This document shows, piece after piece, positions 22,132 through 62,262 of a DNA stretch of 64,000 nucleotides. Position numbers and translations under genes: made by a program. The DNA is from an uncultured Gemmatimonadales bacterium (GTDB lineage: Bacteria; Gemmatimonadota; Gemmatimonadetes; Gemmatimonadales; GWC2-71-9). The number at the start of each line of letters is the position of its first letter. Positions within the stretch are counted from its first letter, which is position 1. Location of the stretch: the NCBI GenBank assembly GCA_963844035.1, contig CAWJMT010000003.1:128001-192000 (forward strand). Direction: 5' to 3'. The notes below the pieces were generated by a model, which searched no databases, was not told where the DNA came from, and saw only the letters and a program-made list of their open reading frames with translations.

Positions 22132-23049
22132 GTGGTTTCGGGACGGGTGCTGTACGGCCCCGACCGCAAGCCGCTGCCGGGCACCTGGGCCGTGCTGCAC
22201 CATGTGCAGAACATGCGGGGGGCGAGCGGGCCCGTCGATTCGGCCCGCACCGGCCCGCAGGGGGACTACCGGCTCAGGATTCCACGCGCCGATACGACCG
22301 GGATGTATGTGGTGAGCAGCCTGTACCGCGGCATCGCGTACTTTTCCGAGCCGGTGCCGATCCGAGACGCGCTGTCCGCTACCCTCAAGCCGATCTTCGT
22401 GTACGACACGACCTCGACCGGCCCCCCGGTCCTCACGCAGCGCCGCCTTGTGACCGTCGCACTCCCGAGCAAGGACGGCACCCGGGCGGTGCTCGAGCTG
22501 CTGGTGCTCCAGAACTCCGGGACCATGACGCGCGTGGCGGCCGACACCTTACGCCCGACGTGGTGGGGCCTCGTGCCGCGCGAAGCGATCCAGTTCCAGG
22601 CGGAAGAGGGCGACATCTCGCCCCAGGCGGTTGGCTTGCGCGAGGATACGGTCGCCGTCTTCGGACCGATCCCGCCCGACGAATACAAGCAGCTCAGTTA
22701 TTCCTATGTGCTGCCGTCGACGTCGCAGCGGTTCGCGATCCCCATCGGCCAGCCGGTCGCGGAGATCGACATCCTGCTCGAAGACACCGTCGCGACCGCG
22801 CAGGGCCCCGGCATCGAGACCCTGGGCGTGCAGGCGATCGAGCAGCGCCGCTTTGTGGGCTTCAGGACCGGTTCGCAGCAGCCCGGGGCCGAGGTCACCA
22901 TCACCTTTGCGCCTCCCCCGTTCAGCGTGCAGACGCTGCTGCCTTACCTCATTGCGCTCGTCGCGTTGGCGCTCGTGGGAGGGCTGGTGGTCGCGCTTCG
23001 CAGACGGCCATCAGCCATCAGCAATCAGCCATCAGTACCTGAACGCTGA
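22132..23049 (+). CDS. Exported, C-terminally membrane-anchored hypothetical protein (carboxypeptidase-regulatory-like N-domain); true start probably about 22036
   Basis: Frame open upstream with signal-like [10 protein letters not shown]...GAQ; VSGRV...DSARTGPQGDYRL beta-sandwich; C-terminal TM plus RRR. Confidence 0.6.
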   Translation: MVSGRVLYGPDRKPLPGTWAVLHHVQNMRGASGPVDSARTGPQGDYRLRIPRADTTGMYVVSSLYRGIAYFSEPVPIRDALSATLKPIFVYDTTSTGPPVLTQRRLVTVALPSKDGTRAVLELLVLQNSGTMTRVAADTLRPTWWGLVPREAIQFQAEEGDISPQAVGLREDTVAVFGPIPPDEYKQLSYSYVLPSTSQRFAIPIGQPVAEIDILLEDTVATAQGPGIETLGVQAIEQRRFVGFRTGSQQPGAEVTITFAPPPFSVQTLLPYLIALVALALVGGLVVALRRRPSAISNQPSVPER

Positions 23050-23082
23050 CGGCTGATAGCTGACGGCTGAACGCTGACGGCT
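23007..23082. repeat. Inverted heptamer array: 4x GC(C/A)ATCA then 6x CTGAnnG
   Basis: gccatca gccatca gcaatca gccatca g-tac-ctgaacg ctgacgg ctgatag ctgacgg ctgaacg ctgacgg. Confidence 0.9.
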
Positions 23083-23095
23083 TAGCTTACCGGCC

Positions 23096-24133
23096 ATGAG
23101 ACGGTTGGCGATCCTCTGCTTGACGTCCCTCGCGGCGTGCAGCGACGCACTCGAGCAAGACACCACGGCCGGACAAGTGGTGGCGGTCGTCGAGCAGGCG
23201 CCGGAGGCGTTGGTGCGGTTGATCTCGGCGGAGAACTTTTCGGTCAAGTCCACCATCCCCGTGACGGGCGTTCCTTCCGGCCAGGCGGCGGGCAGGGAAA
23301 GCGTGCTGCTCATGTCCACGGGCTCCAACGTCATCGTGTTCGACTTCACACAGCCCAACGTGACATCCGGGCGCGTCATTCCCGTCACGTCCACCCCGGG
23401 CGTCGAATACGCGCTCGTCTTTCAGGACGCGTCGGTGGCCTGGGCCACGTTCGACCGGCCGTCGCTCCCCGGTCCCAACCGCTACATCGTGGCGCGCGTC
23501 AACATCATCACGGGAGACACGGCCACACGGTCGCTCCCGGCGCTTCCGCGAAGCCTGGCCATCGCGAACGGCGCCGTGTTCGTGTTGCTCGTCGCTCCGA
23601 ATGCGGTCTCCTGGCTTGCGGTGCTCGACCCGGCGACTCTGCAGACCATCGATTCGGTGCCGCTGACGCCGCTCGACGGCCGGGCGGTCACTCTGGGCGA
23701 CGACGACCTGTTGTACGTGATCGCCAACGGCCCGCCGGCGAGCATGGGCATGGGCCGGTTGGCCATCGTCGACCCGGGCCCCCGCGAAGAAGTCGCCGTG
23801 ATCAACGGGTTGGGGGATCCCACCGGCGCGGCGGTGCCGCATCCGTCGGGCCGGTTGCTCGTGCCCTCACTCCAGGGAATTCTCGAGGTGAACCCGGCGA
23901 CCCGCTCGGTGACCCGCGGGCCCAACGCCGGCGTGATGCCCTCCGGGGACTACGTGGTCGCTCTGGTCCTGGACCAGCGCGGGCGGGTGTACGGCATCCG
24001 CGATCATTGCGGGGATCCCGCGGGGCACCCGGGAGCGGTGTACGTGCTCGCGCCGCCGCCGGGCTTCGATGAGCTGGAGACGGTGGCGGTGGGTACGTGT
24101 CCCGTGGGCGCGGCAGCCGTTTTCACCCAGTGA
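23096..24133 (+). CDS. Putative lipoprotein with beta-propeller-like (YncE-like) repeats
   Basis: Lipobox MRRLAILCLTSLAAC; repeated beta-blade motifs (VLDPATLQTIDSV, LYVIANG, VGTCP). Confidence 0.6.
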   Translation: MRRLAILCLTSLAACSDALEQDTTAGQVVAVVEQAPEALVRLISAENFSVKSTIPVTGVPSGQAAGRESVLLMSTGSNVIVFDFTQPNVTSGRVIPVTSTPGVEYALVFQDASVAWATFDRPSLPGPNRYIVARVNIITGDTATRSLPALPRSLAIANGAVFVLLVAPNAVSWLAVLDPATLQTIDSVPLTPLDGRAVTLGDDDLLYVIANGPPASMGMGRLAIVDPGPREEVAVINGLGDPTGAAVPHPSGRLLVPSLQGILEVNPATRSVTRGPNAGVMPSGDYVVALVLDQRGRVYGIRDHCGDPAGHPGAVYVLAPPPGFDELETVAVGTCPVGAAAVFTQ

Positions 24134-24157
24134 ACGCCGGGCGCTCCGTCTGACGCC

Positions 24158-60255: not shown

Positions 60256-60570
60256 ATGGCAACGGCAACTGCAAGCAAGGCAAAGCTCAAGGTTTACCCG
60301 CTGGCTGACCGGGTGGCGATCAAGCCCCTCGAGGAGACCGAGACGATGAAGGGTGGTCTCTACATCCCCGACACGGCGAAGGAGAAGCCGATTCAGGGTG
60401 AGGTGATCGCGGTCGGGCCGGGCAGGCGGGAGAAGGGTGACGTCGTCCCGATGGAGTTGAAGGTGGGAGACCGGGTCGTGTACGGGAAGTACAGCGGCAC
60501 GCAGGTCGAGCTGGGTGGGGACGAGATCATTCTGATCAAGGAATCCGATGTCATTGCGAAACTCGCTTAA
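60256..60570 (+). CDS. groES: Co-chaperonin GroES
   Basis: [35 protein letters not shown]. Confidence 0.98.
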
Positions 60571-60587
60571 GGCTTAGGGAGGAACAG

Positions 60588-62225
60588 ATGGCTGCGAAGC
60601 AACTGGAGTTCAATACCGAGGCCCGCGCCCGGTTGAAGCGGGGCGTGGACCAACTGGCAGAGGCAGTGAAGGTGACGCTTGGCCCCAAGGGCCGGAACGT
60701 CGTCATCGACAAGAAATTCGGCAGCCCCACCGTGACGAAGGACGGGGTCACGGTCGCCAAGGAAATCGAGCTCGAAGACCCGATCGAGAACATGGGCGCC
60801 CAGATGGTCAAAGAGGTGGCGACCAAGACCTCGGATCTGGCGGGCGACGGGACGACCACGGCGACTGTGCTGGCGCAGGCCATCTTTCGTGAGGGCCTGA
60901 AGTCGGTCACGGCGGGTGTGAGCCCGATGTCCCTCAAGCGGGGCATCGAGCGGGCGGTGGACGCGGTGGTGGACGAGCTGAAGAAGATCTCGGTACCGAC
61001 GGCTGGCCGCAAAGAGATCGCGCAGGTCGGCACGATCTCCGCAAACAACGACAGCGAGATCGGCAAGATCATCGCCGACGCGATGGAGAAGGTCGGCAAG
61101 GACGGCGTCATCACGGTCGAAGAGGCGAAGGGTCTCGAGACCACATACGAGACGGTGGACGGGATGCAGTTCGATCGCGGCTATCTGTCGCCGTACTTCG
61201 TCACCGATCCGGAGAAGATGGAGTGCGTGCTCGAAGATGCGCACATCCTGATTCACGACAAGAAGATCTCCTCGATGAAGGACCTGCTGCCCGTGCTCGA
61301 GAAGGTCGCACAGGCGGGTCGGCCCCTGCTGATCATCGCCGAGGATATCGAGGGTGAGGCGCTCGCGACGCTGGTGGTCAACAAGCTGCGCGGCACGCTC
61401 AAGGTGTGCGGCGTCAAAGCGCCGGGCTTCGGGGATCGTCGCAAGGATCTGTTGCGCGACATCGCCGTCCTGAGCGGTGGACAGGTGATCTCGGAGGAAG
61501 TCGGCTTCAAGCTCGAGAACGCGGTCCTGAGCGACCTGGGTCATGCCAAGCGCGTGGTGATCGACAAGGACAACACGACCGTCGTGGATGGCAAGGGCAA
61601 GCAGAACGACATCCAGGGCCGGATCAATGAGATCAAGGCCGCAGTCGAAAAGTCCACGTCCGACTATGACCGCGAGAAGCTGCAGGAGCGCCTGGCGAAG
61701 CTCGCCGGGGGCGTGGCGGTCGTGCACGTGGGCGCAGCCACCGAGACCGAAATGAAGGAGAAGAAGGCCCGCGTGGAGGATGCGCTGCACGCTACGCGCG
61801 CCGCGGTCGAGGAAGGCATCGTCCCGGGCGGCGGGGTCGCGCTGCTGTGGTGCCAGCGGGTCCTGGACAAGGTGAAGGGGACCACCGAGGACGAGAAGAT
61901 CGGTATCGACATCGTGCGGCGGGCGCTGGAAGAGCCGATCCGGATGATTGCCCAGAACGCGGGTGCGGAAGGCTCGATCATCGTCGGGAAGGTCAAGGAG
62001 TCGAAGGATAAGAACTTCGGCTACAACGCCCAGAACGACACGTTCGAGGACCTGGTGGCGGCCGGCGTCATCGACCCCACGAAGGTCACCCGGACGGCCC
62101 TGCAGAACGCCGCGTCGATCGCGGGACTGCTCCTGACGACCGAGTGCGTCGTCGTGGAGAAGAAGGAGAAGGACAAGGCTCCGCCGATGCCCGGCGGTGG
62201 CGGCGGCATGGGTGGCATGTACTAG
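60588..62225 (+). CDS. groEL: Chaperonin GroEL
   Basis: [32 protein letters not shown]-terminal GGMGGMY. Confidence 0.99.
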
Positions 62226-62228
62226 GAC

Positions 62229-62262
62229 TAGACGCATAGACGCACAGACAGACGCACAGACA
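62229..62262 (+). repeat. Octamer tandem (TAGACGCA family) immediately after groEL
   Basis: tagacgca tagacgca caga cagacgca caga ca; same unit as the tRNA-spacer array. Confidence 0.8.

Follow-up and report, generated by a model that had tools for sequence, protein, structure and literature searches.

We analysed a 64,000-nucleotide stretch of DNA from an uncultured Gemmatimonadales bacterium, hereafter the window (contig C3:128001-192000 in an 84%-complete assembly of 3.47 Mb; window GC content 69%). Scattered through the window, and through the rest of the source genome (G000), are arrays of a tandemly repeated 7- or 8-base unit. Many arrays face a mirror-image array nearby, and we call the two members of such a pair the first and second arm. 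These mirror-image repeat runs are real. Furthermore, blocks of ~150-650 nucleotides (nt) that are bounded by the arms differ wholesale between near-identical relatives, and these differences are likely to arise by recombinational exchange of whole blocks. Our preferred reading, which we put at roughly 50%, is that blocks bracketed by arm pairs move as units by short-tract homologous replacement. Cassettes carrying a four-helix-bundle (FHB) gene (PF05635/TIGR02436, the 23S intervening sequence, or 23S-IVS, family) would be the loaded members that stand behind the gene-less forms. What is new here is that arms in miaA and in the mutL linker enclose host coding sequence, and that the blocks are replaced as units between lineages.

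The window contains eight period-7 or period-8 arrays scoring at least 10. By comparison, 40 windows simulated with an order-5 Markov model contained 0.7 on average and never more than 2. Across the whole genome we detected 132 period-7 and 124 period-8 arrays (255 after merging), against 4.6 and 0 in simulated sequence. These genome-wide counts are slightly inflated, since ~200 kb of the assembly is duplicated between contigs (C3/C35, C30/C9/C1, C17/C1, C4/C8 and others) at ~84-99% identity. The duplication points to paralogues or co-binned strains in excess of the 3% contamination estimate. Strong enrichment was seen only for periods 7 and 8 and their multiples; periods 5, 10, 11 and 13 were near background. 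An inverted partner was present within 700 nt of 155 of the 255 arrays; the corresponding counts were 5 for random gene ends and 12 when a direct copy was sought. The original prediction had proposed a genome scan with a shuffled comparison, and both the arrays and their inverted pairing are indeed far above background. An assembly artefact was ruled out, because independent assemblies carry arrays at the same sites. Among metagenome contigs from relatives, one lacks the pair at the mutL-miaA junction and another has an AATGCGG array there.

The arrays have a fixed polarity: G exceeds C in 71/81 first arms and in only 6/74 second arms. Copy number is 3.5-4.5 in 198/255 arrays, with the low side of the distribution clipped by the score threshold. 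Gene borders were taken from a simple purpose-made gene caller and are approximate. On these borders, the outer edge lies no more than 30 nt from a stop codon, and mostly no more than 10 nt, in 69 of the 237 arrays to which polarity could be assigned. The others are near a start codon (19), within called genes (64) or elsewhere (85). A few units dominate the genome, and ACACCTG alone makes up 45 arrays at dozens of unrelated loci. There are at least eight unit families, 8-mers included, and some units are only a few substitutions apart. ACACCTG and most 8-mer units have no G-tracts; only some families are rich in G-runs. At C20:13738-13859, in this GC-rich genome, there is an AT-rich inverted pair of 8-mers belonging to the AAATTGTT family (8 and 4 copies), which was possibly acquired recently.

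Exchange of blocks was followed mainly in the mutL-miaA operon. The features of this part of the window are as follows.

51105..51250, + strand: exchangeable block in the mutL linker
51212..51241, + strand: lone second arm, (CCYGACA)x4, in frame, in the mutL linker
51804..51835, + strand: first arm, (AATGCGG)x4.6, immediately past the mutL stop codon
51847..51881, + strand: second arm, before the miaA start codon (RNA fold z-score of the pair -6.5)
52733..52760, + strand: first arm, (TCAGCCR)x4, an in-frame insertion in miaA past the KRQxTWFxxQL motif (RNA fold z-score of the pair -2.6)
52770..52829, + strand: enclosed host sequence, 20 conserved MiaA codons (WMLNAT...FERW)
52841..52875, + strand: second arm over the miaA stop codon (52857-52859), 5 nt ahead of the start of a GT4 glycosyltransferase gene

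For miaA we collected 80 metagenome loci, which gave 69 distinct alleles once duplicates and two truncated loci had been dropped. Arms are carried by ~62 of the 69. The insert region is 42, 45 or 48 nt long in 65 alleles, versus 21 nt in three, and falls into about twelve unit classes. Both arms share the same unit in 53 of the 61 labelled alleles, whereas permutation gave a mean of 7 and a maximum of 18. In all 61, an allele's own arms form a better duplex than arms of other units. Stepwise drift of the unit was rejected, as unrelated units are found on backbones that are 96-99% identical. The 20 codons between the arms are also present in array-free orthologues. Hence, the miaA pair cannot be the scar of an excised gene. 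In the window, miaA passes from tblastn frame 2 to frame 3 at 52581-52588, probably through an indel error, as frameshifts also affect several FHB genes of the same assembly. Owing to the frameshift, the source genome was left out of the MiaA and GT4 protein tree, and no counts were drawn from that tree. Many relatives have a host xLF motif between two arms in the mutL linker, where the source genome has the second arm only. A long heptamer-derived insert in the mutL linker of L023 (G024) is translated as repeated DSRL-like peptides; here, the arrays give rise to a low-complexity segment of MutL.

Sequence between the miaA arms changes together with the unit. Between alleles with flanks at least 94% identical, the 60-nt loop is 93% identical if the unit is the same (n=15) but 63% identical if it differs (n=17). 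When each allele is matched to its nearest neighbour by loop, the unit is shared in 29/47 cases, compared with 12/47 and 13/47 when the match is made by the flanks. An unbiased window scan was made of 78 pairs from 24 alleles, with backbone identities of 0.90-0.995. Windows below 75% identity were found in 60-92% of the pairs at the mutL linker, the mutL-miaA junction and the end of miaA. Other windows were this divergent in 0-5% of pairs, rising to 10% at the alignment edge and 19% beside the junction. For 15 pairs with a median backbone identity of at least 0.96, identity fell below 0.80 at the mutL block in nine and at the miaA block in seven, compared with 1/225 backbone windows. The mutL and miaA blocks are 1.5 kb apart and switch independently. 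Mismatch tracts run 0-50 nt outside the arms, on both sides, and their ragged, variable ends suggest homologous replacement. Near-identical blocks are also present on diverged backbones (L320/L351, block 0.97 and backbone 0.92; L324/L353, block 0.97 and backbone 0.89). The comparison covers three blocks of one operon and one loaded FHB cassette, of which contigs C9 and C30 hold two copies of one locus in the source assembly. These copies are 0.63-0.80 identical in four cassette windows and 0.93-1.00 identical in 53 windows of the flanks. An identity of 65% between flanks that are 99% identical is beyond the reach of neutral drift. An assembler bubble would presumably need both blocks to exist on similar backbones.

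FHB genes are found at seven loci in the source genome, representing five distinct sites, and all are between inverted arrays. They adjoin protein-coding genes rather than the 23S rRNA gene, and none is in the window. The idea that arm pairs elsewhere might enclose small genes was therefore borne out, in this genome and across phyla. Seven other short genes are located between arrays (two for CrcB, one each for IF3, a YegS fragment, DUF116 and a pilin-like protein, and one without assignment). These are mostly between unmatched units; the FHB gene is the only small gene repeatedly found between matched arms. The arm units of the FHB loci also occur as gene-less arrays elsewhere in the same genome, the array counts being 45 for ACACCTG, 18 for AAGGCGGG, 16 for AAGACGCT, 12 for AACCGCCT and 3 for ACGCATAG. 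For the other common units, no FHB partner was found in the 84%-complete genome.

The association extends well beyond one genome. Of 76 FHB loci from the source genome and its relatives, 70 could be analysed for flank pairing, and in 60 of these the flanks pair better than the best of 20 shuffles. The same was true of 68/78 loci in a cross-phylum set (80 loci, two of which were dropped at contig edges), and 44/56 clear arrays flanking the cross-phylum loci have a period of 7. A profile built from the FHB proteins of the source genome and relatives found its closest matches in Gemmatimonadales metagenome-assembled genomes. Six Gemmatimonadales cassettes (L130, L131, L116, L117, L129 and L108) have arms of longer period (10 by scan; 12-13 by eye), and they fall mostly within the clade of 8-mer cassettes. 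FHB genes are present in 35 of 41 related genomes. Across the 41, FHB count and array count are correlated (Spearman 0.48), where arrays were counted with three patterns that favour the units of the source genome and the genomes are not independent. Matches to the patterns number 0, 1, 0, 4, 34 and 7 in the six FHB-negative genomes; the median for the remaining 35 is 44. By direct sampling, array density per Mb was 4 and 7 for two genomes that lack FHB genes and 17-33 for three that have them. The FHB tree groups units, a grouping that is confounded by co-inheritance and orthologous sites. Across phyla, protein similarity tracks unit similarity (r 0.27, 700 pairs from 42 loci).

Loaded, empty and clean states of one junction could be compared between genomes. 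Among 70 located FHB loci of relatives, 28 mapped to a junction in the source genome. There, the junction holds an FHB cassette in nine cases, an empty pair in six (four sites), a single arm in one and no array in nine; three were undecided. Some of the nine cassette-to-cassette junctions differ in unit or in FHB clade. The original prediction offered scars of excised genes as one origin of the pairs. Four empty-pair junctions fit this suggestion, as they hold an FHB cassette in a relative; the miaA pair, with host codons as its loop, does not. The mutL-miaA junction varies among close alleles, some having a complete pair, some just the first or just the second arm, and others a remnant, another unit or an empty site; clean junctions are common among close relatives. 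Some alleles have a GTGA-like stop/start overlap on both sides of this junction, which retention of both codons could explain. A shared ~70-90 nt insert that is not an array occupies the junction in L370 and L371. Thus, the site also takes other small elements.

The preferred reading can be cast as a mechanism. In single-stranded nucleic acid, the two arms would anneal to each other and extrude the sequence between them as a loop. This would set two short flanks side by side, so that a heterologous block could be installed with tens of bases of homology. The FHB protein might bind the arm of about four copies, or its stem, and protect or deliver the block. Solved relatives of the protein (PDB 2gsc and 2rld) contain five chains each, and we take the FHB protein to be a pentamer related to Avd, a protein of diversity-generating retroelements. 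A search of the source genome for a reverse transcriptase, linked transposase or small nuclease came up empty, and the role of the FHB protein is accordingly inferred. Catalysis would fall to host recombination proteins. The donor may be DNA taken up from relatives, and a ComEC-type gene is present in the source genome; alternatively, the donor could be RNA-derived. New arms would come from FHB cassettes, to which gene-less pairs and single arms would trace back. Pairs would then decay by internal deletion to give empty pairs, single arms and clean junctions.

Several observations weigh against this reading. None of the 188 loci covering the junctions of the window has an FHB gene at them, and no catalyst for block transfer was found. 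Compared by eye, the unit in miaA is similar to the arm of an FHB locus in its own genome for ~4 of 10 array-bearing genomes (G002, G004 and, roughly, G006 and G001-type); there is clearly no likeness in the source genome, G015, G016 or G017. Two genomes break the correlation between FHB genes and arrays, G031 with eight FHB hits and one match, and G014 with 34 matches and no FHB. The matches in G014 are to a GGGR-type array pattern, and no PF05635 gene is present at 97% completeness; either recent loss or a different partner would account for this. A protein-to-unit code specific to the proposed loop is weak (partial r 0.09, p 0.048; 0.24 for the rest of the protein). Since the signal is not confined to that loop, recognition is indistinguishable from co-inheritance. 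In miaA, 8/61 alleles are labelled mismatched, and four of these are clear chimeras. The allele pairs compared are not independent; among independent backbone clusters, 5/7 show block replacement. Within these genes, constraint is also lowest at the swapped blocks (identity ~0.5 versus 0.75 in distant pairs), and the same loci contain no equally unconstrained region free of arms that could act as a control. Finally, arm-free stretches diverge too, though less often: duplicated segments of the source genome are divergent in 40/1177 arm-free windows and in 2/16 windows with a detected array, where ~11 of the 40 carry arms by eye and some duplicates may be paralogues. Divergence was likewise seen at 9/76 arm-free junctions and at the 1/1 junction with arms.

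The arms might instead be RNA hairpins maintained by selection at cistron borders, where they would serve as RNase III sites, as stabilisers or as sites bound by the FHB protein. They would be shuffled by ordinary recombination and, with half-swaps breaking the pairing, only whole-block imports would survive. This would suit the 69/237 arrays with a first arm within 30 nt, and mostly within 10 nt, of a stop codon, the strong stems indicated by fold z-scores and the superior own-arm duplex in 61/61 alleles. The stem of the Coxiella IVS, with its tandem heptamers, is cut by RNase III (PMC4990558). Yet imports from a ~90%-identical pool should also be seen in the backbone, where just 1/225 windows is below 0.92. 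Moreover, clean junctions are common in close relatives, the miaA stem would be within translated sequence, and G003, a genome of the same genus, has 0 matches to the three array patterns. We regard selected hairpins as a doubtful explanation but one to be taken seriously. Slippage that makes one arm, followed by template switching that mirrors it, would leave the process neutral and the FHB gene a passenger. Arrays do occupy low-constraint sites, and some units are a few substitutions apart. Conversely, this origin does not accommodate the same few units at dozens of unrelated loci (ACACCTG 45 times), the fixed polarity, strong enrichment for periods 7, 8 and their multiples only, loops that change along with the unit, or FHB genes flanked by arms across phyla. 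Taken as a whole, this account is very unlikely. The view that slippage alone is insufficient is upheld. As a sole cause, slippage with template switching is largely refuted by the concerted units of the arms, the unit-linked loops and the drops in identity at blocks; it may lie behind the arrival of the first arm inside miaA.

Two further explanations invoke an enzyme. If the arms were sites of fragility or targeting, the hairpin would be cut by a nuclease specific for its structure or unit, and repair would copy the allele of a relative and so turn units over. Ragged co-conversion tracts on both sides agree with this, and Ssn nucleases, which modulate transformation, act at the repeats that flank them (PMC11893778). 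Cut alleles should, however, give way to arm-free ones, yet ~62/69 miaA alleles have arms. A nuclease gene between arms had been named as one possibility, but no small GIY-YIG gene was found in the 84%-complete genome; the sole GIY-YIG hit is inside a 1126-aa open frame. Four Y1_Tnp loci were detected, none bracketed by arrays, and again the FHB gene is the only small gene repeatedly found between matched arms. Turnover by a nuclease is therefore unlikely. A GxxExxY gene, also suggested as cargo, was similarly not found at this completeness. Alternatively, a reverse transcriptase could write the repeats, or copy an RNase-III-excised hairpin RNA into DNA, with the FHB protein as an Avd-like accessory subunit. 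Short donors and short flanks would be compatible with cDNA, and the FHB protein has a weak match to bAvd (PF22296, E 1.4e-4, below the cut-off). Against this, RVT_1 is present in 0/7 genomes of the genus and 5/41 genomes overall, whereas FHB genes are in 35/41. Templated addition of repeats, as first envisaged, thus found no backing in the shape of a dedicated reverse transcriptase, and we consider the whole scheme quite unlikely. At 84% completeness, the negatives for reverse transcriptase, GxxExxY and small GIY-YIG genes and for RAYT linkage in the source genome are to be read as 'not found'.

The other arrays of the window are at four loci.

23007..23035, + strand: first arm, (GCCATCA)x4, in frame, in the C-terminal tail of open reading frame (ORF) 22147-23049
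23039..23082, + strand: second, inverted arm, across the stop codon of ORF 22147-23049 (fold z-score -6.8)
31040..31068, + strand: first arm, (GGGAMGR)x4, 5 nt past the clpB stop codon
31074..31087, + strand: truncated second arm, ~2 copies, before a tadA-like deaminase gene (fold z-score -1.9)
32325..32360, + strand: first arm, degenerate, 8-mer TAGACGCA family, between two tRNA-Ser genes
32386..32419, + strand: second arm of the tRNA-Ser spacer pair (fold z-score -5.2)
62229..62263, + strand: lone first arm, TAGACGCA family, 4 nt past the groEL stop codon, before a terminator-like hairpin

All seven predicted loci are thus present in the sequence, with the expected units at the expected coordinates. 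The prediction of 4-6 copies per array is right for some; several arms have 3-4 clean copies. Of five loci said to have a second arm, those at 23007, 32325, 51804 and 52733 have it in full and that at 31040 has only ~2 copies, while 51212 and 62229 are single arms. Placement at junctions or in linkers of housekeeping operons also stands, except that the first arm at 52733 is inside miaA, in frame, ~100 nt before the stop codon. The host operons contain clpB with the tadA-like deaminase gene, the two tRNA-Ser genes, mutL, miaA, the GT4 glycosyltransferase gene and groEL (assigned with Pfam and ARAGORN). An Rfam search of the window returned the two tRNAs only. ORF 22147-23049 has no Pfam match and is upstream of gene 23096-24133. 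None of 17 relatives has a counterpart of this ORF at that place, and most show another gene end, so that at 23007 there was no matching junction to compare. Between the two tRNA-Ser genes, the spacer measures 111 nt in the source genome versus 2 nt in G002, of the same genus. Past the groEL stop codon, relatives have other units or no array. In G016 (L207), a terminator-like hairpin at this position is between two arms, and is another case of wrapped host sequence.

Cyanobacterial short tandemly repeated repetitive (STRR) heptamers also form short dispersed arrays near gene ends, and their origin is unexplained. The original prediction noted this resemblance; the class turns out to be better documented than was suggested (PMC4692102, PMC4476775). 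In the available text of Rehm et al. (2015, PMC4692102), the GGGAATC repeats of Xanthomonas and the GGGGA(C/T)T repeats of Nostoc have a period of 7, mostly four units, a dispersed distribution and convergent inverted pairs, as here, and their role is left unresolved. The authors count 70 convergent pairs in Xcc. Placement in Xanthomonas is also the same, with the G-rich strand past stop codons and, in antisense orientation, before start codons (PMC4692102). Unlike these genomes, which have one unit family each, the source genome has at least eight, 8-mers included. Their GGGNATC consensus can form G-quadruplexes, whereas many units here cannot (PMC4692102). That text reports stable flanking loci and, as far as it is available, no FHB link or block exchange. 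A closer parallel for exchange is the P6b stem-loop of the Nostoc trnL intron, with its Class I and Class II seven-nucleotide repeats (Kaasalainen et al., 2015, PMC4476775). There too, a hairpin of two complementary 7-nt repeat arms has been swapped whole for another class, repeatedly and independently. P6b is one non-coding locus with two classes, for which the available text proposes no mechanism or protein (PMC4476775). The present case goes beyond it in having many units, several loci, enclosed host codons and a loaded cassette.

In repetitive extragenic palindrome (REP/REPIN-RAYT) systems, a small gene is flanked by its own inverted repeats, gene-less doublets are numerous and a genome may have several sequence families. 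As in those systems, gene-less inverted doublets here share sequence with the flanks of the loaded copy. The Ssn/NTS system is an architectural analogue (PMC11893778, available text). Unlike both, the arms here are tandem arrays in place of fixed palindromes, the cargo has no HUH or GIY-YIG domain and spread at a given site looks like homologous replacement. In comparison with an insertion sequence or miniature inverted-repeat transposable element, the arms are degenerate arrays and the ends of replacement vary. The Coxiella 23S IVS has an S23p ORF, tandem heptamers upstream of this ORF and a stem of ~28 bp cut by RNase III (PMC4990558, available text). It resembles the seven loaded loci outside the window, in which a PF05635/TIGR02436 ORF is between complementary ends; it differs in that cassettes here are between protein-coding genes and most copies are gene-less. 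The TAACTGA repeats of Beggiatoaceae are short dispersed heptamer arrays of unexplained origin, for which horizontal spread is suspected (PMC4679880). In the available text, almost all are unpaired direct repeats just upstream of start codons, and so these sets differ. In the literature searched, with subscription papers and supplements outside its scope, we found no link between FHB genes and dispersed heptamer pairs except the Coxiella IVS, and nothing on exchange of coding sequence enclosed by arms.

We tentatively extend the preferred reading to a broader proposal, which is possible though short of probable. Arms and the FHB protein would form a widespread, enzyme-light homing system. The protein would recognise its own unit and drive block replacement across species, pieces of core genes such as miaA and mutL included, with tens of bases of homology. 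One process might then lie behind 23S intervening sequences, cyanobacterial STRRs, the GGGAATC pairs of Xanthomonas and the P6b switches of Nostoc.

Heptamer repeats are over-represented in many bacteria and are still unexplained (PMC4692102, PMC4679880, available texts). The TIGR02436/S23 family has no known function, and heptamer arms and this family are now tied to a measurable behaviour. In about half of the allele pairs that are otherwise near-identical, arm-bounded blocks of core genes diverge wholesale, as neighbouring sequence almost never does; this extends the single-locus replacement of Nostoc P6b to coding DNA. Such exchangeable blocks mislead strain phylogenies. The behaviour lends itself to direct binding and transformation assays. 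If arms alone mobilise the DNA that they enclose, they would be a compact tool for targeted segment replacement.

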